A stretch of DNA of 13,859 nt from Pseudomonadota bacterium (lineage in GTDB: Bacteria > Desulfobacterota > Desulfobacteria > Desulfobacterales > RPRI01). Of the stretch, positions 1,592-13,859 are shown piece after piece (positions within the stretch are counted from its first letter, which is position 1; the number at the start of each line of letters is the position of its first letter). The position numbers were made by a program, and so were the translations under genes. Under the pieces are notes generated by a model, which saw only the letters and a program-made list of their open reading frames with translations, was not told the DNA's origin and did not search any database. The DNA lies in NCBI GenBank assembly GCA_043825875.1, contig JBDRRF010000082.1, positions 1 to 13,859 of the forward strand. Direction: 5' to 3'.

Positions 1592-1641
1592 ATAGAAAGG
1601 AGTAAAAAATGAATGTAATGCGAGTCAAAGAACATCATCCA
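1592..1641 (+). repeat. Direct repeat copy B (RBS and start of the intact FAD oxidoreductase gene)
   Basis: 47/50 identical to 211-260. Confidence 0.95.
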
Positions 1642-3054
1642 TTGTATGGTGAATTGGCGATGATTGTTGGTTCCAAATTTACAACAGACAGCGACTTTGC
1701 TTTGTGGGCATATTCCCGCGACTCAAGTCCTGTTCCGGGAAAGGTTCCGGGGATAATCGTAAGGCCCGGCAGCACCGAGGAAGTATCGGAGATCATCAAA
1801 CTTGCAAATCTGACTCATACCCCGGTAATCCCACGTGGTGGGGGCGCTTCTATTTTTGGTTTTCCGGCAGGTATTCCCGGAAGAAGTATAGTAATGGATA
1901 CTACACGGCTGGACAAATTAATTGAGATCAATGAAGAAAACATGACGGTAACTGCTGAGGCAGGCATCGGTGTTTGCGAGCTGGGAACCAAGCTGACCGA
2001 AAAGGGATATTATGCAAATCTTGTCTGGGCGCCCTATTATGCGGATACGCTCGGTGGCCTGATTGGCGGCGTTATGGGTGGAGGATGGTCGACGCGAACG
2101 CAAGTAGTGGGACCCAATGCGAATCATATACTGGGCATGAAAGTAGTTACGCCCACCGGAGGCGTGATCCAAACCGGGGGAGGTCCGGGGACTAATGTGC
2201 ATCGTAAAACCACCTTCATGCGTGATGGGGGCGGACCCGATACAACCGGTTTATTCATCGGTGATGGAGGAACATTCGGCATTAAAACCGAAATAACGCT
2301 TTCAATTTACCCCCTCGAAACGGTTGCCAAACCAAGAGGCTTTCTCTTCAAGAGTTTTGATGACATCTGGAGCGCCATGTCCAGGTTGATGGCAATAGAG
2401 CCCTTTCCTTATACGAATCTTGTCGGACTTGCACCGAATGCCACGGCGCTGTTTATGAAAGATCCTTGTTGGGTATTATTATGCTATACCAGAGGATATG
2501 AGGAAGAGGAGGTAACAACCAAGATTAAGGTAGTAGATGAGGTTTGCTTGGCGGCAGGAGGTGAAATGGGTTCGGAAGCGATTCATATGCAGGCCAGTGC
2601 AGCCGGAACCGGAGAAATGTATCGTGAAATGGGCAAGCTTGCTTCGATAGGTATGTGGGTATTTCTTGAGACGCATGTTCCCAAAGAAGATCTTCCGAGA
2701 CTCTTTAACAAGTATGCTGAGCTGATTGATCAAAGATTCGAAGAAAAAGGCATAAAGGAATATGGCGGTGTCAGAATGGATGTTATGTTGCCTGTAGGGC
2801 ACGGCGAGTGCTATCTTTCGACAAATGTTTACTGGCAGGTTAATGTTCCGGAAGCAAGAAAGAAAGTTATGGAAATAGCTGACGAGTTCGTTAATGTCAC
2901 GATAAATGACGGGCTGTTTGCAACAACCGCCCAGCGTATACCCGCCGGAGTAACAGGCGCCAACTGGTCACCTTCTTATTATGAATTTATGCGCACCTTA
3001 AAGAAAGCAATGGACCCCAACAATATAATTAATCCCGGACATTGGGGTTTGTAG
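1609..3054 (+). CDS. FAD-binding oxidoreductase, GlcD/D-lactate dehydrogenase (VAO/PCMH-fold) family, copy 1
   Basis: Motifs YSRD, VRPGSTEEV, PVIPRGGGAS, TLGGLIGG, GLFIGDGGTFGIKTEITL and C-terminal LKKAMDPNNIINPG. RBS AAGGAG. Confidence 0.92.
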   Translation: MNVMRVKEHHPLYGELAMIVGSKFTTDSDFALWAYSRDSSPVPGKVPGIIVRPGSTEEVSEIIKLANLTHTPVIPRGGGASIFGFPAGIPGRSIVMDTTRLDKLIEINEENMTVTAEAGIGVCELGTKLTEKGYYANLVWAPYYADTLGGLIGGVMGGGWSTRTQVVGPNANHILGMKVVTPTGGVIQTGGGPGTNVHRKTTFMRDGGGPDTTGLFIGDGGTFGIKTEITLSIYPLETVAKPRGFLFKSFDDIWSAMSRLMAIEPFPYTNLVGLAPNATALFMKDPCWVLLCYTRGYEEEEVTTKIKVVDEVCLAAGGEMGSEAIHMQASAAGTGEMYREMGKLASIGMWVFLETHVPKEDLPRLFNKYAELIDQRFEEKGIKEYGGVRMDVMLPVGHGECYLSTNVYWQVNVPEARKKVMEIADEFVNVTINDGLFATTAQRIPAGVTGANWSPSYYEFMRTLKKAMDPNNIINPGHWGL

Positions 3055-3069: not shown

Positions 3070-4248
3070 ATGCTAGAAAAATATCGATATAATGTTGCCA
3101 GATGTGCAAGGTGTGGTATCTGTCGGGCAAAATACAGCGAAAAAGTTCACTATGTTTGCCCCGTCAGGGAGCATACCGGAGGATTTGAACATTATTTCAG
3201 CAGGGGAAGAGTTGCTGTTGCCGCGGGAATTCTGGAAGGCGCCATTGACTATTCTCCCGAGCTTGTTGAAGTGCTTTATACCTGTCTTGGCTGTAAAAGT
3301 TGTGTGGAGCAATGCGGGTCAGTAGATATGAGAAACGGCAAATCTCTGGTTGATACGGCAAAAATAGTCCGGGAAATGAGAGAAGATGCGATTGCACTGG
3401 GGTTGGAACCTAAAATAATGCAGGAACTTCATGCTACCGTATCCAAGAACAAGAATACCTTTGGGGGAAGCCTGGAGGAGAAGAATAAACTGGCTAAAAA
3501 ATTTGAACTTCCTGATAAAGGAGATACTATCTTCTTTTCAGGGTGCTATGGCGTCTATCGTGATCGTAAAGAAGCAGAGGCTACAATAAAAATTCTCAAG
3601 GCTACAGGAGCTGCGCCCGCATATCTTGCTGATAAGGAGTGGTGCTGCGGAGTAATGGAGTATTGGGGCGGCAATACCAAAGTGGCAAGAGATATGGCAT
3701 TGCATAACATGGAAGCCTTGGATGCGGCAGGTGTTAAGACATTAGTAACCGCATGTTCAGGTTGTTTGGATACCATCAAGGATATATATCCTGAGATTAT
3801 AGAAGACAAGCTTCCCTTCAAGGTTATTCACATAAGTGAATATCTTGCGGATCTGGTTAAAAAAGGGGAGTTGAAATTTACCAAAGAAATAAATAAAACT
3901 GTGACCTACCATGACCCATGCCATTTGGGAAGGCATGCAAGAATATTTGATGCGCCCAGGAAAGTGATCGAAAGCATTCCAGGCATCACCCTTAAGGAAA
4001 TGGAAAGAAACAGAGAGGCTTCCGGTTGTTGTGGTAGTGGCATAGGAGCTGTTAGGGCATTGGAACCTGATTTGGCATTGGCTATTACTAATGACAGAAT
4101 TAAAGAGGCTGTAGCAACCGGCGCCGAAGTCCTTACATCGGCCTGTCCTATGTGTGTAGAACAACTTACGCTGGCAGGAAGAGCAGCGAAGGCTAAATTG
4201 GAATATATAAATCTTCCGGCGTTGGTAGCTGAGGCCATGGGGCTGTAA
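3070..4248 (+). CDS. HdrD/GlcF-like Fe-S protein (2x[4Fe-4S] plus two CCG domains), copy 1
   Basis: CARCGIC...CP and CLGCKSCVEQC ferredoxin motifs. CCG domains FSGC/WCCG/ACSGC and YHDPCHLGR/GCCG/ACPMC. RBS GGAGG. Confidence 0.92.
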   Translation: MLEKYRYNVARCARCGICRAKYSEKVHYVCPVREHTGGFEHYFSRGRVAVAAGILEGAIDYSPELVEVLYTCLGCKSCVEQCGSVDMRNGKSLVDTAKIVREMREDAIALGLEPKIMQELHATVSKNKNTFGGSLEEKNKLAKKFELPDKGDTIFFSGCYGVYRDRKEAEATIKILKATGAAPAYLADKEWCCGVMEYWGGNTKVARDMALHNMEALDAAGVKTLVTACSGCLDTIKDIYPEIIEDKLPFKVIHISEYLADLVKKGELKFTKEINKTVTYHDPCHLGRHARIFDAPRKVIESIPGITLKEMERNREASGCCGSGIGAVRALEPDLALAITNDRIKEAVATGAEVLTSACPMCVEQLTLAGRAAKAKLEYINLPALVAEAMGL

Positions 4249-4249
4249 C

Positions 4250-4391
4250 GAGACCTCTGAAAAACGCCCCCTTTTGCCCGATTTCTGCGTCAGGCTCAAA
4301 TTTCAATCCTCGAAATACTAAATGTATTCCTGCGGTTGAAATTTTTGCCTTCCTTGAACTTGAGCAAAATTGAGCATTTTTCAAAGGTCTC
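4250..4391. mobile_element. 142-nt rod-like palindromic element (MITE-like or structured repeat), copy 1
   Basis: Terminal inverted repeats GAGACCTCTGAAAAA / TTTTTCAAAGGTCTC (14/15), pairing continues inward, and there is an inner hairpin AAATTTCAA..AATAC..GTATT..TTGAAATTT. A second copy at 13719-13859 is 111/141 identical without gaps. Confidence 0.8.
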
Positions 4392-4408
4392 ATAATATAT
4401 TTAATATT

Positions 4409-4446
4409 CCCCTTCCTCTTGATGGGGGAGGGCTGGGGTGGGGGTG
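4409..4446. repeat. G-rich REP-like palindrome (CCCTTCCTC-TTGAT-GGGGGAGGG followed by CTGGGGTGGGGGTG)
   Basis: Imperfect hairpin followed by G-tracts, 13 nt upstream of ATG 4460. Single copy in the window. Resembles an extragenic repeat type I recall from deltaproteobacterial genomes. Confidence 0.55.
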
Positions 4447-4459
4447 AAAAAAAGGAAAA

Positions 4460-4900
4460 ATGGCAGAAATTAACGGATATGATATGCCCGATGATTTGCA
4501 CTATCATAAGGAACACATCTGGGCCAGGGTTGAATTCAAAAAAGTTAGAGTTGGAGTAACTGATTTTGCGCAGAAATCGGCTGGTGATATAGTTTATGTC
4601 GATTTGCCGTTTGAGGGAGATGAAGTAAAACAGGGTGAATCCTTCGGCAAGATGCAATCAGCCAAATGGATCGGAGAGCTATATGCGCCGATCAGCGGTG
4701 AAATTATTTCGGTCAATGAGATACTGGAAGGAAAACCGACATTGATAAACCAAAGCCCGTATGAGTCCGGATGGGTAATTGTTATCAGGCCAAGCAATCT
4801 TGAAGAAGAGCTTAAAACGCTGATGACGCATGAGACCGGTTTGGCGGATTGGTTAAATGGAGAAATAGAGAGAGTTAAAGCTCAAACGGAAGGGGCGTAA
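4460..4900 (+). CDS. gcvH: Glycine cleavage H-like lipoyl carrier protein (GcvH/LbpA-like)
   Basis: PDDLHYHKEHIW, RVGVTDFAQ..AGDIVYVDLP, lipoyl site MQSAKW (Lys69), LYAPISGEI..VN and INQSPYESGW. Confidence 0.93.
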   Translation: MAEINGYDMPDDLHYHKEHIWARVEFKKVRVGVTDFAQKSAGDIVYVDLPFEGDEVKQGESFGKMQSAKWIGELYAPISGEIISVNEILEGKPTLINQSPYESGWVIVIRPSNLEEELKTLMTHETGLADWLNGEIERVKAQTEGA

Positions 4901-4910
4901 GAAATACCTG

Positions 4911-6380
4911 ATGTCTGTATATGAAGATATAGCGGCAATTGTCGGTAAGGAAAAGATAAGCGAAAGCAATCTTGATCGTATTTGCTATAGTCATGATCTG
5001 GCCCCGCTGCCGGATGATTTGCTTAAGGGATTTGGTGTAGCTAAGCCTGATGTTGTTGTAAGGCCCGCCAATTTATCACACATTGCAGACATCATGAAAT
5101 ATGCTTCCCAAAAAAATATTCCGGTTACGCCAAGGGGTGGAGGTTCATGGGGACTTGGAGGAGTTCTGCCAATTGGCGGAGGCATTGTTTTAGATTTAAG
5201 CGGTATGAATCGTATTATAGAAGTAAACACTGAAGATGAGTATGTGACAGTTGAAACCGGGGTAGAGTGGAAACGTTTAACAAATACTATCAAAAAACAT
5301 GGATTTTATGTGGGTGCTTGTCCTACAAGCGCCCCTGTTGCAACAATCGGCGGTTATATAGCAACAGGAGGTTCTTCAGGAATAGGTGTTTCCCAGCACG
5401 GGCCACTTGGTGACCAAATAATATCTCTTAAAGCAGTACTTCCGGATGGAACAGTTATACAAACCAATCCTTGGGATTCATGGATTTTTGTTGGTTCGGA
5501 AGGGACTTTGGGAATAGTTTGTGAAGCAACTATTAAAATATTTAAAAAGAATAAAATGAAACATATGTTGTTTAGCTTTGACAGTTTTGATGCAGGATTG
5601 GAGGCTGTTATCAAGTTAAATGAAATAAGTCCTTATTATTATAACATCATGGATGAAGGCTTTGTCAGGTTGTTAAGAGAAAAAGGAAGCCTGTTACCTG
5701 AAAGTAAAATGATATTGGCAGTTACTTTAAATGAAATAAACGGTAAGTTGCAGGAAAAAGAAAAAGCAATAAACTCTATTTGCCGTGGCACAAGATTATC
5801 CGATGAAATGGCAGAAGAAGAATGGGAAAACAGATATAAAACAGCTCTTAGCATTAAAAGCCTGGGGCCGACGCTTTTGACTCAGGAGATCAGACTTCCT
5901 GTCAGGTTTCTGGGACAGGCGCTTAGTGAGTGGAAAACCGTTTTAAAGGGAAAAAGATTCGCTTTCAAAGGTGTCTGTAGTGATAATGGGGCCATAAGTG
6001 TTTTTCCGGTAGTACTGACAGATGAAAGAGAAAAATATGAGTTTATGAAGACCCTTTCTTATACCCGTGAAATAGCCGAAATAGGGAAAAAATATCATGG
6101 CTCTGTTTATGGTATAGGGCTTTTTAACTCAAACCAGATGGCAGATATTCATGGCAAATCGCTTGATGTAATGAAAGAGATAAAAAGGATTTTGGATCAA
6201 AAGAACATACTTAATCCGGGAAAAACAGTTGAAAGCAGAATTCCTGATATCTTTTTGTCTCTTGTTTTTACATTGATGAAACATGCGACTCCCCTTTTTG
6301 CTTTTCTTGCAAAAAGTGCAAATCGCCTTCCGGATAGTTTTATAAATAATTCTTTAAAGCTTCTAAAGGGTAGAAAGTGA
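4911..6380 (+). CDS. FAD-binding oxidoreductase, GlcD-like family, copy 2
   Basis: YSHD, PDVVVRP, PVTPRGGGSWGLGG, ATIGGYIATGG, FVGSEGTLGIVCEATIK and IKRILDQKNILNPGK, followed by an amphipathic/hydrophobic C-terminal tail. Confidence 0.92.
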   Translation: MSVYEDIAAIVGKEKISESNLDRICYSHDLAPLPDDLLKGFGVAKPDVVVRPANLSHIADIMKYASQKNIPVTPRGGGSWGLGGVLPIGGGIVLDLSGMNRIIEVNTEDEYVTVETGVEWKRLTNTIKKHGFYVGACPTSAPVATIGGYIATGGSSGIGVSQHGPLGDQIISLKAVLPDGTVIQTNPWDSWIFVGSEGTLGIVCEATIKIFKKNKMKHMLFSFDSFDAGLEAVIKLNEISPYYYNIMDEGFVRLLREKGSLLPESKMILAVTLNEINGKLQEKEKAINSICRGTRLSDEMAEEEWENRYKTALSIKSLGPTLLTQEIRLPVRFLGQALSEWKTVLKGKRFAFKGVCSDNGAISVFPVVLTDEREKYEFMKTLSYTREIAEIGKKYHGSVYGIGLFNSNQMADIHGKSLDVMKEIKRILDQKNILNPGKTVESRIPDIFLSLVFTLMKHATPLFAFLAKSANRLPDSFINNSLKLLKGRK

Positions 6381-7489
6381 AAGAAGATATAAAAGATTTA
6401 ATTTCCAAAAATGTTTATACCTGCGCCAGTTGCGGCTTCTGTCGTTTTGGCTGTCCCGTATCAAAGAATGTGGGTTTTGAAAGCCAAACGGTAAGGGGCA
6501 GGATGTATCTTCTGAAAAAATATATGGAAGGCGGACTGGAATATGACAAGGATCTTATTGAATCATTTTATACATGTGCTTTATGTGGAAACTGCAATGA
6601 GATTTGTCCCACAGGTGTTGATTATCTTGAAATTGTCTCACAATTAAGAAAACAGTTTGTGGAATCGGGGAAACTTCCCGAATCCCAAAAAATGTTAAGA
6701 GATAATCTGGTAAAATGTGGAAACCCTTTTGCTAAAGATAAAGAAGAAAGAGGGGCATGGCTTCCTCCCCAATATCGTGAGCACAAAAAAAGTAAAAATA
6801 TGTATTTTGTTGGTTGTTCATCTTCATATTCTTCCAATAGGATTGCCAAATCGATTATAAAGGTTTTGGAGAGTGCAGGGTTTGAATTTAATGTGATGGG
6901 AAATTCGGAAAGTTGCTGCGGCGATCCTTTATTTCGAATGGGTGAAGAAGAGAAGGCAAATGAGTTTATGCAGCAAAATATTGAAGTATTTGATAAGCTT
7001 GAAGTTGAAACTGTTTTTGCTTCATGTGCCGGATGTTATAAAACTTTAAAAAACAAATATCCTCAAAAATATAATGTTTTACATATAACCCAACTCCTCC
7101 ATCAGTTGGTTGAACAGGGCAAACTTGTATTCAAAAAAGAATTTCCAAACAAAATTATTTACTTTGACGGTTGCGATATCGGAAGACATTGCAAAACTTA
7201 TGAAGAACCCAGGGCTTTGTTAAAAGCAATTCCGGGAGTTGAATTGCTTGAGTTTGACTATAACAGAGATGAAGCCATGTGTTGCGGAGGTCCATTTGCT
7301 GCAAGTGACCCTGATCTGGCGGCAAAAATAGCCGAAGACAGAGTAAAAGAAGCAGAAGAACAGGGTGCGCAAATCATTGCCACAGCTTGCCCAACCTGTA
7401 TGGTTAATTTAAGAGAAGGGGCAAGAAGAATAGGTAGTGAAGTAGAAGTTCAGGATATCACATTGATGCTGCCAAAGTTAATTCGGTGA
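6377..7489 (+). CDS. HdrD/GlcF-like Fe-S protein (2x[4Fe-4S] plus two CCG domains), copy 2
   Basis: CASCGFCRFGCP and CALCGNCNEICP. CCG domains FVGC/SCCG/SCAGC and FDGC/MCCG/ACPTC. GTG start overlaps the upstream TGA (GTGA coupling). Confidence 0.92.
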   Translation: MKEDIKDLISKNVYTCASCGFCRFGCPVSKNVGFESQTVRGRMYLLKKYMEGGLEYDKDLIESFYTCALCGNCNEICPTGVDYLEIVSQLRKQFVESGKLPESQKMLRDNLVKCGNPFAKDKEERGAWLPPQYREHKKSKNMYFVGCSSSYSSNRIAKSIIKVLESAGFEFNVMGNSESCCGDPLFRMGEEEKANEFMQQNIEVFDKLEVETVFASCAGCYKTLKNKYPQKYNVLHITQLLHQLVEQGKLVFKKEFPNKIIYFDGCDIGRHCKTYEEPRALLKAIPGVELLEFDYNRDEAMCCGGPFAASDPDLAAKIAEDRVKEAEEQGAQIIATACPTCMVNLREGARRIGSEVEVQDITLMLPKLIR

Positions 7490-7492
7490 AAA

Positions 7493-8296
7493 ATGAATAA
7501 AATACTTACATGGATAGATACAGAAATTGTTGAGTTAAACGGCGACGCTACTATTAGCGAGGTTAATACCGAACTGGGAGAATATTGTCTTCCTGTTGAG
7601 CCGTTAAGCGATAAAAAAACAATCAGCAGCTTTATTAAAGAAGGTGGGATAGGTTACAATTCTTTGCATAATAAAACTCTTGGTTCTTCAATATTTGAGT
7701 TGTCCTCAACCTTTTCCGGGATAAATTTTACTTATGGCAGTAAATATAAAACACTGTATAATGCCGGGTATCCATTGCACAGGATTATTGAAGGCCCATC
7801 ATTTTCAAAAGAACTGTCTGATAAATTTGATCGGATAGAAAAAGTAGTATTGCCTGTAAGGAAAAATAAAGATGTGGAAGTGCTTTTTCATAATGGAAAT
7901 CTTGATCAATTCCATCAACACCAAATCCCTGACAATGCATCCAATGTTTTTTTTATTAATGATTTTGGCGCTAAACTTATGGGTTTGGAAGGCGAGGGAA
8001 TTGTTACAACTTATCTTAATCCAGGCAAAGAGAGTCTGAAATCAAATATGAAAATCTGGGAAAACAGATTTCTGGAGGATCTGATTCCTGATGATCATGA
8101 TACCATAAAGTTTCTTACAATGAACAGCCGGGTTGCGCAAATATATAAGCTTTTTAATGAAAACTCACAGGGCCTTTTTTTTGCATTACATGTGCACAAG
8201 GGTATCCTGGTTTTGATGTCAGGAAATAGCACTCAACTTGATACTGTGGCTGAAAATATCAAACTGTTTCCTCTGACCTTTGAAATAGGGACATGA
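7493..8296 (+). CDS. Hypothetical protein, probably a degenerate GlcE-like FAD-binding subunit
   Basis: 267-aa ORF tightly coupled to both neighbours. TISSFIKEGGIGYNS..KTLGSSI resembles TIGG.IA.GG.G..S..G..G..I. YGSKYKTLYNAGYPLHRIIEG resembles GlcE GG.V.KNVAGYDL..L..GS. The PRGGG loop is missing. Confidence 0.65.
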   Translation: MNKILTWIDTEIVELNGDATISEVNTELGEYCLPVEPLSDKKTISSFIKEGGIGYNSLHNKTLGSSIFELSSTFSGINFTYGSKYKTLYNAGYPLHRIIEGPSFSKELSDKFDRIEKVVLPVRKNKDVEVLFHNGNLDQFHQHQIPDNASNVFFINDFGAKLMGLEGEGIVTTYLNPGKESLKSNMKIWENRFLEDLIPDDHDTIKFLTMNSRVAQIYKLFNENSQGLFFALHVHKGILVLMSGNSTQLDTVAENIKLFPLTFEIGT

Positions 8297-9858
8297 TAAT
8301 GAATATTTGGAGATTATTGGATACAGGAGTCCTGAGCGCAGCAGAAAACATGGCCTTAGATGACTTAATCTTAGAGGCGAGAAGTAAAAATTTAATTCCC
8401 AATACTCTTCGTTTTTTACAATTTAGCCCACCGGCAGTCCTTGTTGGCTACTATCAAAGTGTAGAGCAGGAAATCAGAACAAGTTATTGCAGAGAACAAA
8501 GCATTGATATTAACAGACGAATGACCGGGGGCGGAGCTATATTTTTTGATCGTTCCCAGCTTGGGTGGGGAATATATGCTTCCAAAAAGGAATTAGGAGC
8601 TGCAAATCCTGAGATATTATTTAAGAAGATATGTCAGGCTGTTATCCTTGGGTTAAAGAGGTTTGGTATTGATGCTAAATATCGTCCTAAAAACGATATA
8701 GAAGTAGCAGGTAAAAAGATTTCCGGGACAGGAGGAACTGAAGAAAAAAACGCATTTTTGTTTCAGGGAACCTTACTTATGGATTTTGACGTGGATACCA
8801 TGTTAAAATCCCTTAGAATCCCTACAGAAAAGTTAATGGATAAAGGGATAGAATCCGCCAGAGAACGCACTACATGCCTTAAGTGGGAACTGGGGTATTT
8901 GCCGAAGTTGAGCGAAGTAAAAAATGCGATAAAAGAAGGTTTTGAAGAAACATTAAAAATCAAATTTGCAGAAGAGGGCCTTACAGAATATGAACAAGGG
9001 CTGTTTAAAAATAAGATAGATAGATTTAAATCGAATGAGTGGATTTACCAAAGAAAAGGATCTGTTGAAAAACTTCCGATCTTAACCTCAAGTTACAGAA
9101 CAAAAGGTGGATCAATTCAGGTTTCTTTAACTATTAATGTTGAGACCAATATCATTCAGAGTGTTTTAATTACGGGTGATTTCTTTGCTCATCCGAAAAG
9201 CGCCTTATTTGATCTGGAAGCGACCTTAAAATTTACACGGGCGGAAAGAGAAAGAATACAGGAAGTAGTTTTTGATTTTTTTGAAAAGGAAAAAGGTTTA
9301 TTTCCGGATATATCTCCTTCGGATTTTGTTGATGCAATATATGAGGCGGTAAAAAAAGTTGAATGCTTAAAACATGGAATCTCTTCGCCTGAAGCTAACA
9401 GGATCTTTACTGTAAATGGTAGTTTTGATCAGATAATCAAAAAGAAACCATCTTACTTATTGCTTCCTTATTGCGCCAAGCTTGTAGATTGTGAACATAG
9501 ACACAAAAGGGAGTGTGTGGACTGCGGGGAATGCGGTGTTGGTGATGTTTATCGTCTGGCAAATGAAAAGGGATTACATCCTGTTACTATTACCAGTTTT
9601 GAGGACTTGATGGAAACCTTTGCCGATATGGAATCTAAAGGGATAAAGTCTTATATCGGAAGTTGTTGCAGACATTTTTATGTCAAACACCGAAATGATT
9701 TTGAGATGGCCGGGCTTTCCGGCATATTGATAGATATTGAGAATACTACCTGTTATGATCTGGGGAAAGAGAATGATGCCTATAATGGTGTCTTTAAAGG
9801 TCAGACCGAACTGGATGCAGGATTGATCGGTAAGATATTGAATAGTTATAGACCTTAA
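8293..9858 (+). CDS. lplA: Lipoate-protein ligase (catalytic plus C-terminal LplB-like domain) fused to a Cys-rich DUF116-like domain
   Basis: ENMALD, NTLRF, RRMTGGGAIFFD, PKNDI, KKISG and QGTLL. Accessory domain ITGDFF. C-terminal LLLPYCAKLVDC...CVDCGECGVG...GSCC...TCYD. Start is ATG 8293 (ATGA overlap) or 8299. Confidence 0.9.
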   Translation: MIMNIWRLLDTGVLSAAENMALDDLILEARSKNLIPNTLRFLQFSPPAVLVGYYQSVEQEIRTSYCREQSIDINRRMTGGGAIFFDRSQLGWGIYASKKELGAANPEILFKKICQAVILGLKRFGIDAKYRPKNDIEVAGKKISGTGGTEEKNAFLFQGTLLMDFDVDTMLKSLRIPTEKLMDKGIESARERTTCLKWELGYLPKLSEVKNAIKEGFEETLKIKFAEEGLTEYEQGLFKNKIDRFKSNEWIYQRKGSVEKLPILTSSYRTKGGSIQVSLTINVETNIIQSVLITGDFFAHPKSALFDLEATLKFTRAERERIQEVVFDFFEKEKGLFPDISPSDFVDAIYEAVKKVECLKHGISSPEANRIFTVNGSFDQIIKKKPSYLLLPYCAKLVDCEHRHKRECVDCGECGVGDVYRLANEKGLHPVTITSFEDLMETFADMESKGIKSYIGSCCRHFYVKHRNDFEMAGLSGILIDIENTTCYDLGKENDAYNGVFKGQTELDAGLIGKILNSYRP

Positions 9859-9890
9859 GATAAAGCTTAAGACCTATATGAAAGTAATTT

Positions 9891-10090
9891 GAATATCGAA
9901 TTTCGAACAAGGAATAATGAATATCGAAGAAAAAGAAAAATTTTGATATAGAAGATCGTTACCAAAGACAAATAGAGGAAGCATTAGTGGCGATATAAAA
10001 TGCCGCCCTACGGCAGATGATATAGGGCGACATTTTATACCCCGCCAACTATTTCATAATTCGATATTCTTTGTTCGATATTGGATATTC
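9891..10090. repeat. Inverted pair of 7-nt-periodic (GAATATC-like) repeats
   Basis: 9891-9928 GAATATC GAATTTC GAACAAG GAATAAT GAATATC GAA vs reverse complement of 10053-10090: 30/38 identical. Confidence 0.8.
9987..10047. repeat. Degenerate GTAG-type REP doublet (REPIN-like)
   Basis: GTGGCGATATAAAATGCCGCCCTAC (9987-10011) and inverted TAGGGCGACATTTTATACCCCGCCA (10023-10047). Confidence 0.75.
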
Positions 10091-10145
10091 GTTTTTATAG
10101 ATAAACTTCATAAATTAACTTAGTGCCTTTGGTAAAGGGCATTGC

Positions 10146-10226
10146 GGCGGGGTGTAACAACCCCCTTTGTCCCCCTTGTAAAGGGGGAATACAGTCCGCC
10201 GTAGGGTGGCATTTTATATGCCGCCA
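10146..10226. repeat. REP doublet whose left unit is interrupted by a second palindrome type
   Basis: Half unit GGCGGGGTGTAA (10146-10157), then CCCCCTTTGTCCCCCTTGTAAAGGGGGA (10161-10188, hairpin TCCCCCTT/AAGGGGGA), then full unit GTAGGGTGGCATTTTATATGCCGCCA (10201-10226). Confidence 0.7.
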
Positions 10227-10285
10227 ATGATGCTTAATTAATCAATGTGAATTATATGAAAGCAAATTTTATTAACCTTATATCA

Positions 10286-10348
10286 GTGGCGGGGTATAAA
10301 ACCCCGCCCTACGGAAGATGGTAGTAGGGCGGGGTTTTACACCCCGCC
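10286..10348. repeat. Intact GTAG-type REP doublet (REPIN-like) overlapping the start of the downstream CDS
   Basis: GGCGGGGTATAAAACCCCGCCCTAC (10288-10312) and GTAGGGCGGGGTTTTACACCCCGCC (10324-10348) are inverted copies (24/25) around an 11-nt spacer. Each unit is GTAG plus a GC-rich palindrome. Confidence 0.88.
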
Positions 10349-11409
10349 GAAATCGCTATGATTTAGTAATAGTAGGAGCAGGACCTGCGGGCACTACGGC
10401 AGCCAGAGTTGCATCCGAGAAGGGAATTCGTACCTTAATAATAGAGAAGAAGGCTTGCATAGGCTCGCCGGTTCAATGCGCTGAACACATTCCCAAGCTA
10501 TTGATGCAACAGGTTAATTTTCATAGCCGTTGTATCACTCAGGAAGTCGGCATGATGATAACGTACATGCCGGATGGGGATATAGTAGAGACAAAGGCGC
10601 CTGGGTATATAATTGACAGGTCGCTGTTTGATAAAGGATTGGCCCTGGATGCAATCAGCAAAGGTGCCGATCTAATGATCAAAACGGCGGCCCATTCCAG
10701 CTATGAGAAAGGTATTATAGCAAAAACTGGAAGTAAAGAAGTAAGTATTGAGGCCAAAGTGATTATCGGGGCCGATGGCCCTAACTCCACAGTAGGCGGA
10801 TGGATAAATCGGAAAAACAGTGAATTTGTTTCTGCCGCACAATGCGAAGTACTTCTCAATCAACCGATAGAAGCAACATGCATCTATTTCTGCATGGAAT
10901 ATATGGGCGGATATGGCTGGTTGTTTCCTAAAGGCAGAACGGCAAATGTCGGTGTTGGAATAAATAATAAGATCGGACGCCAAAAACTATCAACATGTTT
11001 AAAACATTTATTGGATAGATTACAAAAGGAAGGAAAGATCAGGGACAATAGTGCAGTTGCTTATACCGCAGGGCTGATTCCGGTCGGCGGGTATCTTGAT
11101 ACCAGCCCATATGAAAACATATTGATAATTGGAGATGCCGCAGGACAGACAGATCCCATAACAGGCGCAGGCATTCCCCAGGCCATTTCCTGCGGAAAGA
11201 TCGCCGGAGAGGTTGCCACCAAAGCCATTAAAGAAAATGATCTTATGATTCTTGGTGAATATGAAAAAAGATGGAAGGGTCTGTTTCAAAGATCACTTGA
11301 TAATGCTCAACAAAAAAGAAAGTTATTGGATAATCACTGGAAGGACGATCAATTAGATAAAATCTTAAGAAAAACATGGGTGGCCTTTGATGGGTATTGG
11401 AGAGAATAA
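10318..11409 (+). CDS. Geranylgeranyl reductase/FixC-family FAD-dependent oxidoreductase (LipT-like by context)
   Basis: YDLVIVGAGPAG Rossmann motif, IEKK...PVQCAE, IDRSLFD, IIGADG, GGYGWLFPKG..ANVGVG and IGDAAGQTDPITGAGI. Sits between the lipoate ligase and lipS1. Confidence 0.88.
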   Translation: MVVGRGFTPRRNRYDLVIVGAGPAGTTAARVASEKGIRTLIIEKKACIGSPVQCAEHIPKLLMQQVNFHSRCITQEVGMMITYMPDGDIVETKAPGYIIDRSLFDKGLALDAISKGADLMIKTAAHSSYEKGIIAKTGSKEVSIEAKVIIGADGPNSTVGGWINRKNSEFVSAAQCEVLLNQPIEATCIYFCMEYMGGYGWLFPKGRTANVGVGINNKIGRQKLSTCLKHLLDRLQKEGKIRDNSAVAYTAGLIPVGGYLDTSPYENILIIGDAAGQTDPITGAGIPQAISCGKIAGEVATKAIKENDLMILGEYEKRWKGLFQRSLDNAQQKRKLLDNHWKDDQLDKILRKTWVAFDGYWRE

Positions 11410-12346
11410 AGAGCTATCCGGGCTGCTGTCAGAAGCCAGAGAACTTTCCTGGGAAAAATGGGGGAAAAAAATAGATTTCTATCTTCCGGGGATGATCACC
11501 TTAAATAAAGAGAAGGGAAAATATCCTGCCATTTCAATTACCGGAGAAAGCTGCGAATTAAACTGCGGCCATTGTGGCGGTAAACTTTTAAAATCCATGA
11601 TTCCTGCTACCACCCCGGAAAAATTGATTGAAAGATGCATAAAGATAAATGAGTCCGGCACTCAGGGTTGTTTGATCAGCGGCGGTTGTCTCAAAAATGG
11701 GAGAATACCGTGGGAGCCTTTCATTGAGGCCATCTCTGAAGTCAAAAAGCTTACTACCTTAAACATATCTATCCATTCCGGTCTGATAGATCTTGAAACA
11801 GCTAAAAGATTCAAGGATGCAGGAGTAGATCAAGTATTAATTGATGTAATCGGAGACGATGAAACCTTTAAGACCGTTTGCCACACAAATGCGGGTATTG
11901 AATCAATAAGAAATTCATTGAAAGCCCTAAGGCAGGCGGGTATTCCTATCGCCCCTCATATTGTTGCAGGTTTAAACTATGGAGAGATTAAGGGCGAATG
12001 GGATGCATTAAAGATGATAGCCGAATTTGAACCCCCGATTTTAGTCATCGTAGTATTAATGCCTTTAACCGGAACACCGATGCAAAATGTATTACCGCCT
12101 GATCCTTCTGAGGTGGCAAGGCTCATAGCTATGGCAAGAATACAGATGCCGGATACTCTTATCAGTTTGGGTTGTGCCCGCCCGCGAGGAAAGGTAAGCG
12201 AAGAATTGGAAGTACTGGCTATAGATTCAGGAGTAAACCGGGTCGCTATCTGGTCTGATGCAGCGATAAAAAGAGCAAAGGAATACGGCTTAGAGATCGG
12301 GTTTCATAAGACTTGTTGTAGTGTTACAGGAGGGGCTTGTGTCTGA
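11390..12346 (+). CDS. lipS1: Radical SAM sulfur-insertion enzyme LipS1 (archaeal-type two-protein lipoate synthase subunit)
   Basis: CELNCGHC radical SAM motif after ISITG, LISGG and PHIVAGL. Carries the LipS1 signature motifs GC(M/A)R (LGCARP) and C-terminal CC (KTCCS). Start is ATG 11390 or TTG 11387, overlapping the upstream gene. Confidence 0.85.
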   Translation: MGIGENKELSGLLSEARELSWEKWGKKIDFYLPGMITLNKEKGKYPAISITGESCELNCGHCGGKLLKSMIPATTPEKLIERCIKINESGTQGCLISGGCLKNGRIPWEPFIEAISEVKKLTTLNISIHSGLIDLETAKRFKDAGVDQVLIDVIGDDETFKTVCHTNAGIESIRNSLKALRQAGIPIAPHIVAGLNYGEIKGEWDALKMIAEFEPPILVIVVLMPLTGTPMQNVLPPDPSEVARLIAMARIQMPDTLISLGCARPRGKVSEELEVLAIDSGVNRVAIWSDAAIKRAKEYGLEIGFHKTCCSVTGGACV

Positions 12347-12686
12347 CTGTACTGGTTGTATGGATTGCGAAAAGGTATGCCCCCTCACTTCTTTCGGTTT
12401 TGGAATCGGCAATATAATCAGAAAGCATCTTGCCGGAAAAGAAGAAGATCTAATTGATACAAAAGAGATATGGCATTGCACTATGTGCTTTGCCTGCGAT
12501 GATGCCTGCCCCACAGACTTTAAGCCCAGAGAGCTTATGATTAGTCTTCGGAGAAGATCCGAAAATTACCCGAAAGCTTATAAAAGATTGGTAGCCGGGA
12601 TAAAAAATTCCGGTAATGCTTTTTCCATGAAAGAAAAAGAAAACAATGATTATTTGCAATTGTTCAAGATATGTCCGCCTGAATGA
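12339..12686 (+). CDS. hdrC: Heterodisulfide reductase subunit C-like 2x[4Fe-4S] protein
   Basis: CTGCMDCEKVCP and IWHCTMCFACDDACP. Start revised to in-frame GTG 12339, which has AGGAGG at 12328-12333 (the ORF track gives 12321). Adjacent to hdrB. Confidence 0.82.
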   Translation: MSDCTGCMDCEKVCPLTSFGFGIGNIIRKHLAGKEEDLIDTKEIWHCTMCFACDDACPTDFKPRELMISLRRRSENYPKAYKRLVAGIKNSGNAFSMKEKENNDYLQLFKICPPE

Positions 12687-12724
12687 GAAGACTGTTACAA
12701 AGGTTTATAAATTAGGTTGCGTAT

Positions 12725-12801
12725 TGTCATTTCGAACAAAGTGAGAAATCTTAATTGATATCGAAGCCGGTAAAAGATATCTCCCTTCGGTCGATATGAC
12801 A
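12725..12801. repeat. TGTCATTTCGA-type composite palindromic repeat between hdrC and hdrB
   Basis: Outer stem TGTCATTTCGA (12725-12735) / TCGATATGACA (12791-12801). Inner stem GAGAAATCTT (12743-12752) / AAGATATCTC (12774-12783). Confidence 0.75.
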
Positions 12802-12832
12802 CCGGAATTATGAAATGGGGCACTATAGATAA

Positions 12833-13654
12833 ATGAAATACGCTTTTTTTCGGGGTTGTATAATACCTTACAGGCTTTCATATTATGAAATTTCCGCCAG
12901 AAAAGTTTTGACAAAATTAGGGATTGAACTGGTTGATCTTGATTTTGGTTGCTGCGGTTCACAAATGCTTGAATCAAGAAACGAGGATTTATGGCTTGCG
13001 GTAGCTGCAAGAAACCTTGCGATAGCGGAAAGAGAAAATGTAGACATACTGACCCTGTGCGGAAGCTGTACCAATACTTTATCCAGAGCAAAGAATCTGA
13101 TGGAAAGTGATATGGACAAAGCTCAGCATGTGAAGCAGATCCTAAAAAAAATAGGGATTGAATTCAATAACAAGACAAGAGTCATACATATTTTAAAACT
13201 ACTGGCTGAAGAAATTGGAATTGGGAAAGTAAAAAAACATATTAAAAACAATCTGGATTTAAAGGTTGCCATGCAACACCCTTGTCAGATCTACCGGCCA
13301 GCTGAAATAATGAATTTTGGAAAAGATGCCGTTAACGATTTTGCCTCTTGCTTTATATCTGAAATCTTTGATGTGAATGCTTGCTGCGGGGAAACTTTGA
13401 TCGCTACAAACCAGGATGCATGCATTAATATCTTGAAACAAAATTTAGAAACCTGTTTTGCCAAAGATGTAAGTATGATTTTAACAGCCTGCGGAAATTG
13501 CCAGATGACCTATGATGTAAATCAGATGGGATTAAAAGTAAAAGATCAAATTAGCAGTACTCTGCCTTCATTGACCATAACTCAAGCGTTAGGGATGGCC
13601 ATGGGTTTTGGATATGATGAACTTGGGTTGAGGCAAAATATTATTAAGATATAA
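12833..13654 (+). CDS. hdrB: Heterodisulfide reductase subunit B-like CCG protein
   Basis: MKYAFFRGC, FGCCG, AARNLAIAE, TLCGSC, QHPCQIYRP, ACCG, TACGNCQMTYD and TQALGMAMG. All 10 CCG cysteines are present. Confidence 0.9.
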   Translation: MKYAFFRGCIIPYRLSYYEISARKVLTKLGIELVDLDFGCCGSQMLESRNEDLWLAVAARNLAIAERENVDILTLCGSCTNTLSRAKNLMESDMDKAQHVKQILKKIGIEFNNKTRVIHILKLLAEEIGIGKVKKHIKNNLDLKVAMQHPCQIYRPAEIMNFGKDAVNDFASCFISEIFDVNACCGETLIATNQDACINILKQNLETCFAKDVSMILTACGNCQMTYDVNQMGLKVKDQISSTLPSLTITQALGMAMGFGYDELGLRQNIIKI

Positions 13655-13718: not shown

Positions 13719-13859
13719 GAGCCAGTTTCAAAACGCCCCATTTTGGCCGATCTCTGCGTTGGGCTCAAATTTCAATCCTCGAAATACTCAATGTATTCCT
13801 GCGGTTGAAATTTTCTCCCGCCTTGAGCTTGACCAAACTGAAACGTTTTGAAAGTGGTA
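13719..13859. mobile_element. 142-nt rod-like palindromic element, copy 2 (runs to window edge)
   Basis: Colinear with 4250-4391 in the same orientation, 111/141 identical. The central 53 nt differ at one base. The termini have diverged but remain self-complementary. Confidence 0.8.

Follow-up and report, generated by a model that had tools for sequence, protein, structure and literature searches.

In the HdrDE, DsrMK(JOP), Tmc and Hmc complexes, a cytoplasmic subunit with CCG domains reduces CoM-S-S-CoB or DsrC. Here we describe a gene cluster in which Hdr-like CCG proteins are encoded together with a GcvH-like lipoyl carrier (an H-protein) and the components of a lipoylation pathway. The cluster lies on a 13,859-base stretch of DNA, referred to here as the window, which is the entire contig C82 of a 4.77-Mb, 118-contig genome with a completeness of 99.81%. 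The closest published system is sHdr-LbpA with its sLpl(AB)-LipS1/S2-LipT pathway (Cao et al. 2018, PMC6067878; Tanabe et al. 2023, PMC10332631). In these papers, a lipoyl protein works with an Hdr-like complex, formation of a dihydrolipoyl group is proposed (PMC6067878), and the sHdr model lets lipoamide accept electrons. Two cysteines of LbpA are described there as strictly conserved, an N-terminal and a C-terminal one (PMC6067878).

The window resembles the sHdr-LbpA system in encoding a GcvH-fold lipoyl protein with Hdr-like CCG proteins, and in the set of a ligase, two radical-SAM synthase subunits and a geranylgeranyl-reductase-like flavoprotein. In contrast to the sHdr gene set (shdrC1B1A-hyp-C2B2), however, there is one HdrC and one HdrB here, and no HdrA-type protein was found among the 12 open reading frames (ORFs) of the window or in the related clusters L015, L016 and L079, the rest of the host genome not having been searched. 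The window cluster has no TusA, DsrE or rhodanese gene, and its carrier has a Lys-Trp signature instead of the two cysteines and hence is no LbpA. The partners here are HdrD-like proteins, VAO-fold flavoproteins and, in relatives, multihaem cytochromes, the ligase bears a DUF116 domain, and the hosts are DsrAB-containing anaerobes, whereas those of sHdr are sulfur-oxidizing lithotrophs. With HdrDE, DsrMK(JOP), Tmc and Hmc the locus shares an HdrD/DsrK-like CCG subunit encoded beside a small redox-dithiol protein, with a membrane cytochrome adjoining in relatives (L059 to L062). Unlike in those complexes, the dithiol would be a lipoyl group on an H-protein rather than the cysteine pair of DsrC or two free coenzymes, and the partners in the window are soluble flavoproteins and the membrane protein orf312.

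We conclude that this H-protein, which belongs to what we call the K-W subfamily, probably functions with Hdr-like CCG enzymes as a dedicated lipoyl carrier equipped with assembly genes of its own. It would be lipoylated by its own Lpl(AB)-DUF116, LipT, LipS1 and LipS2 machinery, and the lipoamide dithiol/disulfide would serve as a protein-bound substrate of the heterodisulfide-reductase-like CCG enzymes, a role modelled on that of CoM-S-S-CoB for HdrB/HdrD and of DsrC for DsrK. Three modules would share the one carrier, namely GlcD1-CCG1 with orf312, GlcD2-CCG2-orf267, and HdrC-HdrB, and the carrier would shuttle electrons between them. We judge the chances to be even that the non-cubane clusters turn over the lipoyl disulfide and that this disulfide carries electrons from one module to another.

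The K-W subfamily is a grouping defined in this analysis and not a published family; its members have a tryptophan after the lipoyl lysine, a high score against a 16-member profile, and a CCG gene or a dedicated lpl gene as neighbor. The window H-protein combines this Lys-Trp pair (Lys69, codon 4664-4666, in the motif QSAKW, followed by Trp70) with the profile score and the neighbors of the subfamily, and it contains no cysteine at all. In the alignment of 16 H-proteins, the lipoyl lysine was invariant and always followed by tryptophan, and no column of conserved cysteine was present. The profile was searched against a phylum sample of 401 genomes (the host and 400 others), which are related, so that counts taken from it are not independent trials. 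Scores were bimodal, with about 80 matches of at least 164 bits in 67 genomes and all remaining matches at 157 bits or less, and the 30 best-scoring loci all had Lys-Trp at the lipoyl site. In a large protein collection, 607 clusters matched the profile at an E value of 1e-20 or better, with Lys-Trp in 118 of the best 120. Stahlbacteria, TA06 and Thermoplasmatota are among the sources of these homologues, and all entries with a name were annotated as glycine cleavage H-protein.

Of the 30 best K-W loci, 21 had a CCG-domain gene no more than 1.5 kb away, versus 1 of 20 control loci, the controls being the next 20 lower-scoring full-length H-protein loci in table order, with one contig-edge fragment skipped. 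The 21 CCG-linked loci span nine families (f1, f78, f43, f50, f54, f18, f21, f27 and f44), and the CCG neighbors were either HdrD-like or HdrB-like with an HdrC-like partner. Gene orders were shuffled among the K-W loci, with arrangements such as hdrB-hdrC-gcvH, CCG-gcvH-fer4-CCG, hdrC-hdrB-gcvH-glcD-like and cytochrome-gcvH-CCG. Since some loci hold only the cytochrome, gcvH and CCG genes, the CCG protein, rather than a flavoprotein, appears to be the partner of the carrier. The lipoyl motif of the control loci was K-A or K-T in 14 cases and K-Y in one, and the pattern used detected no H-protein-type motif in the other five. The K-Y protein is encoded between a CCG gene and lipS1/lpl (L146; G026:C15:8234-11659), which is the sole control locus with a CCG neighbor; given this case, the subfamily signature may be an aromatic residue after the lysine.

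The host genome gave no match to GcvP (PF02347), GcvT (PF01571) or the E2 catalytic domain (PF00198). Its best match to the lipoamide dehydrogenase model scored 371.8 against a cut-off of 408.8 and fitted an unassigned FAD oxidoreductase model better (472.8, cut-off 620); a class-I disulfide reductase resembling LpdA is encoded outside the window and stays below every NCBIfam cut-off. With no GcvP, GcvT or E2 and only a sub-cut-off lipoamide-dehydrogenase-like protein, lipoate therefore serves no textbook enzyme in this host. An earlier reading of this DNA (the original prediction) had placed the H-protein outside glycine cleavage, and both the host and the absence of a GcvP match in 22 of the 67 K-W genomes bear this out. 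It had also asked whether the host carries gcvP, gcvT or lpdA: the first two were not found, but an LpdA-like protein is present, albeit below the cut-offs. The carrier shares with the glycine cleavage H-protein its fold, the position of the lipoyl lysine, a hidden Markov model score above the NCBIfam cut-off and the public family name, while differing in the Lys-Trp signature, in CCG neighbors instead of gcvP/gcvT, and in a host without P- or T-protein.

The host encodes DsrA (619 bits, above the cut-off) with a DsrB-like gene adjoining and is a Dsr-positive member of the Desulfobacterota, a sulfate-reducer-type bacterium; its earlier description as an anaerobic organotroph was in this respect incomplete. 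It is not expected to make CoM or CoB.

Lipoate-related genes were also detected elsewhere in this genome. A canonical LipA and a small Lpl-type ligase are encoded on the separate contig C81 (L017), beside MtrH-like and URO-D-like genes, and four additional H-like proteins adjoin corrinoid/methyltransferase genes or MTHFR. Two near-identical H-like proteins (C31:210-659 and C28:280-729; L018 and L019) have a canonical lysine in the motif ETSKAV, and their neighbors are a B12-binding corrinoid protein, URO-D-type methyltransferases and FAD enzymes. Loci L017 to L019 may represent a second, methyl-transfer-linked use of lipoyl proteins. Two proteins with an H domain, 311 and 329 residues long, are encoded on the minus strand of contig C8 (L020:8535-9470 and 9736-10725); each has a Cys-rich N-terminal extension and a degenerate-looking lipoyl-lysine motif. 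This pair adjoins MTHFR and is situated between two giant proteins (1238-1404 aa) with pyridine-nucleotide-disulfide-reductase, FAD-binding and 4Fe-4S ferredoxin domains.

The Lpl(AB)-DUF116 fusion was found at full length in 58 of the 400 other genomes, and 55 of these 58 also had a K-W H-protein. Of 20 distant loci examined, 19 keep lpl-DUF116 next to lipT and lipS1; 18 of these also have lipS2 alongside, and in one it is some 7 kb distant. In the remaining locus (L067) only lipS1 adjoined lpl. None of the 20 distant loci had hdrC-hdrB between lipS1 and lipS2, or glcD genes. By gene content the host has the sLpl(AB)-LipS1/LipS2(-LipT) pathway, with Lpl, LipS1 and LipT in the window and LipS2 on contig C4, its gene being placed after hdrB by synteny. 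LipS2 is the first gene of that contig (C4:248-1282, outside the window) and scores 239.2 bits, just below the cut-off of 270. Joining C82 to C4 on the basis of their 141-base overlap alone was rejected, as the first 60 bases of the overlap occur 47 times in the genome, many of them at contig ends. In four related loci, however, hdrB is directly followed by lipS2, these being L015 (an uncultured Desulfobacterium sp., ligase identity of 79%), L016 (a metagenome-assembled genome, 91%) and the metagenome contigs L081 and L082; because of this synteny, we take the cluster to extend beyond the end of the contig as far as lipS2. The original prediction had HdrBC recycle the carrier in place of E3, which is a hypothesis only; as hdrC-hdrB sits among the lipoyl-synthase genes, the pair might also help to make or oxidize the new cofactor. 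We found no paper in the open-access literature that pairs DUF116 with lipoate. At two further loci (L059:15370-17187 and L060:15339-16928), a fused LplA-catalytic/radical-SAM (LipA-like) protein heads a cytochrome-gcvH-CCG-lplDUF116 operon, so that two lipoylation routes are present in one cluster of those genomes.

The synteny check proposed in the original prediction came out in its favor, in that the carrier is tied to CCG proteins, VAO-fold flavoproteins and the Lpl/LipT/LipS1/LipS2 module in many families, with the order shuffled. In G033 and G072 (family f43), for example, the order is hdrB-like, gcvH, glcD2, ccg2, orf267, lpl, lipS2, cytochrome c, polyprenyl synthetase and lipS1, and the proteins are 25-57% identical to those of the window. 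We used orf267 as a marker of the glcD2-ccg2-orf267 trio; it is rare, being present in 4 of the 401 genomes and having 42 representatives among 1.84 billion proteins. In 33 metagenome loci with a relative of orf267, ccg2 adjoined it in all 30 that reach upstream, and glcD2 was present wherever the DNA reaches further. Adjacency of gcvH and glcD2 could be scored in 13 loci, the other 20 being too short upstream, and gcvH lay directly upstream of glcD2 in 8 of these 13 (L081, L082, L084, L085, L088, L096, L097 and L105). An apparent break of glcD2 in L015 was rejected, as the stretch is masked N in the sequence collection.

Downstream of the trio there were either lpl/lipS genes or UbiA, a multihaem cytochrome and polyprenyl synthetase. 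The latter three, with a NapC/NirT-like cytochrome, were found in L084 (4434-8105) and L088 (10813-14478), and cytochrome plus polyprenyl synthetase in L096, L097, L102/L103 and G033. L079 (6240-8680) is also among the loci in which isoprenoid/cytochrome-type genes follow the trio, and in L099 the haem-synthesis genes hemE, hemH and a hemY-like gene are situated upstream of it. Together with the geranylgeranyl-reductase-like LipT and the weak likeness of orf312 to carotenoid-synthesis proteins, the genes downstream of the trio hint at a link to isoprenoids or quinones. In 4 of the 20 distant loci (L059 to L062; families f50 and f54), the gene of a multihaem cytochrome of 611-676 residues precedes gcvH and the gene of an HdrD-like CCG protein, with lpl immediately downstream; a NarI-like membrane domain was seen in the L061 cytochrome only.

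The FAD subunit, the degenerate second VAO-fold subunit and the CCG Fe-S subunit of the trio are those of GlcDEF glycolate oxidase and of the two-subunit D-lactate dehydrogenases (GlcD-like plus HdrD-like) of sulfate reducers. Unlike GlcDEF and LDHD (structures 8jdc etc.), however, the proteins described here lack the His/His/Glu residues, score far under the family cut-offs and have an H-protein and lipoylation genes attached. In the alignment of GlcD2 with mouse LDHD, GVCSDNGAISV and GSVYGIG replace GHVGDGNFH and GEHGIG, and the His/His/Glu positions are replaced in all 13 aligned proteins, namely GlcD2, GlcD1 and 11 relatives. We take His-His-Glu to be the metal site of LDHD and assume the role of its catalytic histidine; the label H405A is that of the PDB entries. 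Against the glcD model (TIGR00387, cut-off 567.9), GlcD2 scored 202.8 and GlcD1 scored 100. Because these residues are missing, a hydroxyacid substrate is doubtful, and with it the flavin-linked hydroxyacid oxidation suggested earlier. The standard potentials are about -190 mV for lactate/pyruvate and about -290 mV for lipoamide. Since the potential of lipoamide is the more negative, electrons from a hydroxyacid to lipoamide would have to flow uphill. Dihydrolipoyl-GcvH is thus more likely to be a low-potential donor to the CCG, flavin and membrane modules than an acceptor for hydroxyacid oxidation, because lipoamide is more reducing than lactate/pyruvate or menaquinone.

The label GlcE-like that orf267 had been given is backed by its predicted fold, in the absence of a Pfam match. 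An AlphaFold (AF2) model built from a 16-sequence alignment reached a pLDDT of 82.5 and a pTM of 0.81, and Foldseek matched this model to D-lactate dehydrogenase, D-2-hydroxyglutarate dehydrogenase and alkyl-DHAP synthase, with a probability of 1.0 and a TMq of about 0.7. In CCG2, the eight ferredoxin-type cysteines and the ten CCG-motif cysteines are invariant among 15 aligned HdrD-like proteins, and CCG1 retains every cysteine of both CCG motifs. The alignment of the HdrB-like protein with methanogen HdrB (5odc_B, E value of 6e-39) is full-length, and both CCG motifs of the window protein are complete. The HdrB-like (TIGR03288, 165.4 versus a cut-off of 345) and HdrC-like (TIGR03290, 56.8 versus 160) proteins score below their family cut-offs and have all motif cysteines.

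Several observations weigh against a dedicated carrier for CCG enzymes. Support for it is drawn from gene content and neighborhood in related, non-independent genomes, and the donor role leaves the reductant of lipoyl-GcvH unexplained in a host without P-protein or E1/E2. GcvP is present in 45 of the 67 K-W genomes, and the window H-protein exceeds the NCBIfam GcvH cut-off (135.4 versus 115.85). Nine of the 30 K-W loci have no CCG gene within 1.5 kb, and five of these adjoin only lpl (four of them also histidinol dehydrogenase). The location of hdrC-hdrB inside the lipoyl-synthase genes (lipS1/lipS2) is confined to close kin of the window. Five of the 13 informative trio loci (L099, L102, L103, L106 and L107, of which L102 and L103 are apparently the same arrangement) have no gcvH, indicating that the trio does not need a carrier gene next to it. 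The frequent succession of trio, UbiA, multihaem cytochrome and polyprenyl synthetase is likewise compatible with a link to quinones, and CCG domains are known from quinone-reducing or haem-linked enzymes as well (GlcF, SdhE and EtfD). The best solved match of CCG2 is indeed chain 9ojn_A (E value of 7e-42), which is mycobacterial EtfD (EMO), the ETF:(methyl)menaquinone oxidoreductase (PMC13083937). EtfD, unlike CCG2, is fused to a membrane haem domain and takes electrons from ETF, and no ETF genes were found in the window cluster.

These points lead to an alternative in which the cluster would encode a lipoyl-protein:quinone oxidoreductase that substitutes for E3 and feeds the membrane. The dihydrolipoyl group would be oxidized, or the disulfide reduced, at the GlcD-like/GlcE-like flavin, and the CCG protein would do no more than connect this flavin with quinone or haem, like GlcF, SdhE and EtfD. 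The isoprenoid and cytochrome genes after the trio, the likeness of CCG2 to EtfD, the position of gcvH immediately upstream of glcD2, and a GlcD2 that lacks the hydroxyacid residues yet has a strong FAD-binding domain all fit such an enzyme. We nevertheless consider it unlikely. In many K-W loci of the cytochrome-gcvH-CCG type (L059 to L062, L133 and L136), no flavoprotein gene is present in the stretch covered, leaving the CCG protein as the only candidate partner, and CCG2 retains the ten-cysteine pattern of HdrB, whereas EtfD has lost one cysteine (C-T-G in the first CCG motif, against C-C-G in CCG2). To our knowledge, no VAO-family enzyme acts on a dithiol.

The cluster could also be a cut-down relative of sHdr-LbpA, with the lipoyl arm carrying sulfane sulfur as a persulfide and the CCG enzymes processing this bound sulfur in sulfur oxidation, disproportionation or sulfite metabolism. 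The sLpl(AB)-LipS1/S2-LipT pathway is common to shdr-lbpA clusters, HdrC/HdrB genes are part of the cluster, the host has DsrAB, and LbpA has been proposed as a binder of sulfur substrates (PMC6067878). Yet there is a single HdrC/HdrB pair without HdrA where the shdr set has six genes, TusA, DsrE and rhodanese domains were not found in the window or the annotated related clusters (the rest of the genome was not searched), and the carrier has neither of the LbpA-defining cysteines, which makes this reading rather improbable. Least probable of all, and in our view very unlikely, is an ordinary juxtaposition, in which a lipoate-assembly operon would simply use the H-protein as its first acceptor or as a relay hub, and GlcD/CCG and HdrBC would be unrelated neighboring dehydrogenases. 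It would account for the five K-W loci with lpl as the only meaningful neighbor and for the distant loci, where lpl-lipT-lipS1 is kept in 19 of 20 and glcD or hdrBC in none; H-proteins are lipoyl relay donors in Firmicutes, as mentioned in PMC10332631. It is, however, at odds with a host that lacks E2, GcvP and GcvT as recipients or users of lipoate and encodes another LipA/Lpl pair and four more H-like proteins outside the cluster, with the CCG adjacency in 21 of 30 K-W loci versus 1 of 20 loci of other H-proteins, and with the recurrence of the gene set at 25-57% identity. A dedicated lipoyl carrier of Hdr-like CCG enzymes remains the reading that we prefer.

The Pfam and NCBIfam scans confirmed all genes that had been named between 4460 and 13654 at their positions on the plus strand (Table 1), as well as the absence of GcvP, GcvT, E2, HdrA and TusA/DsrE domains from the window. 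The translational coupling noted earlier is seen as start/stop overlaps at glcD2/ccg2, orf267/lpl, lipT/lipS1 and lipS1/hdrC. The co-directional block is longer than first noted, beginning at 605 with orf312, glcD1 and ccg1, and all large ORFs of the contig are on the plus strand. No Pfam or NCBIfam match was found for orf312. Its neighbors in a protein atlas are unnamed membrane proteins, with a weak likeness to carotenoid-synthesis/AveC-like proteins that is a lead only, and a second copy is located downstream of lipS2 in L016 and L082. We found no similarity between orf267 and orf312, and Pfam at an E value of 10 was useless for both.

Table 1. Features of the 13,859-base window
Feature	Position	Strand	Basis or remark
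orf312, membrane protein with signal-peptide-like N-terminus and several hydrophobic helices	605..1543	+	sequence; heads block
GlcD1, VAO-fold FAD protein (FAD_binding_4), second copy	1609..3054	+	PF01565 94 bits
CCG1, HdrD/GlcF-like Fe-S protein, ferredoxin domain and two CCG domains	3070..4248	+	Pfam/NCBIfam
Dispersed repeat copy	4261..4368		within ccg1-gcvH spacer; ~250-280 BLAST matches genome-wide
GcvH-like lipoyl carrier, K-W subfamily	4460..4900	+	PF01597 132 bits; TIGR00527 135.4 vs cut-off 115.85
GlcD2, VAO-fold FAD protein, hydrophobic C-terminal tail of ~50 residues	4911..6380	+	PF01565 129 bits
CCG2, HdrD/GlcF-like Fe-S protein, ferredoxin domain and two CCG domains	6377..7489	+	Pfam/NCBIfam
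orf267, truncated VAO-fold protein (GlcE-like), marker of trio	7493..8296	+	predicted fold; no family match
Lpl(AB) lipoate:protein ligase fused to Cys-rich DUF116	8293..9858	+	LplA-B_cat and Lip_prot_lig_C
LipT-like FAD protein, geranylgeranyl-reductase family	10318..11409	+	TIGR02032 211.8 vs cut-off 158.8
LipS1 radical-SAM lipoyl synthase subunit	11387..12346	+	NF053742 244.5 vs cut-off 230
HdrC-like protein, two [4Fe-4S] motifs, 121 aa (short)	12321..12686	+	Pfam/NCBIfam
HdrB-like protein, two complete CCG motifs	12833..13654	+	full-length match to 5odc_B
Dispersed repeat at contig end	13719..13859		identical to first 141 bases of contig C4

The long spacers of the operon (4249-4459, 9859-10317 and 12687-12832) contain dispersed repeats, which entered the spacers here and not those of the relatives' operons, where the spacers are short. 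One dispersed element of about 110-140 nucleotides, found in the window at 4261-4368 and 13719-13857, has some 250-280 BLAST matches in the host genome and is located at many contig ends. Further spacer repeats (9868-10317 and 12696-12825) occur in 5-18 copies and contain small GC hairpins followed by TTTTATAT. Rfam gave nothing at the gathering score in the window, repeats included, and a scan of the window for promoters and terminators remained at the level of shuffled sequence (31 versus 33.8 and 16 versus 11.6, respectively). Contig overlaps in this assembly are exactly 141 bases long. Positions 1-141 of the window are identical to the start of contig C62, another branch of the assembly graph, and end the reading frame of a gene whose body lies outside the window.

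Sulfate reducers, syntrophs, metal reducers and many uncultured anaerobes are rich in Hdr-like CCG proteins, whose thiol/disulfide substrate beyond methanogenesis and DsrC has been a question since the comparative genomics of sulfate reducers. A lipoyl H-protein encoded beside CCG genes is a concrete, testable substrate candidate for these bacterial enzymes, and the recurrent gene neighborhood suggests that protein-bound lipoic acid is the long-sought disulfide partner of Hdr-like enzymes outside methanogens. We found no open-access paper or bioRxiv preprint that links a GcvH-like protein to HdrD, GlcD or CCG proteins outside sHdr, and genome tables S2-S5 of PMC10332631 may include such clusters; PMC13261682 makes no mention of lipoamide as an Hdr substrate. 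More tentatively, and with the odds somewhat against it, lipoamide on K-W H-proteins might be a general dithiol/disulfide electron carrier of anaerobes comparable in role to DsrC and CoM-S-S-CoB, and the physiological substrate of the many "orphan" HdrD-, HdrB- and DsrK-like enzymes in bacteria and archaea without CoM/CoB that links flavoprotein modules to multihaem cytochromes or the quinone pool and has its own lipoylation machinery, including DUF116. If true, this would add a third role of lipoate, beyond acyl/aminomethyl transfer and sHdr sulfur oxidation, and would give DUF116 a functional context. It would also correct the annotation "glycine cleavage system H," which inflates predictions of glycine cleavage and of the reductive glycine pathway in metagenome-assembled genomes.

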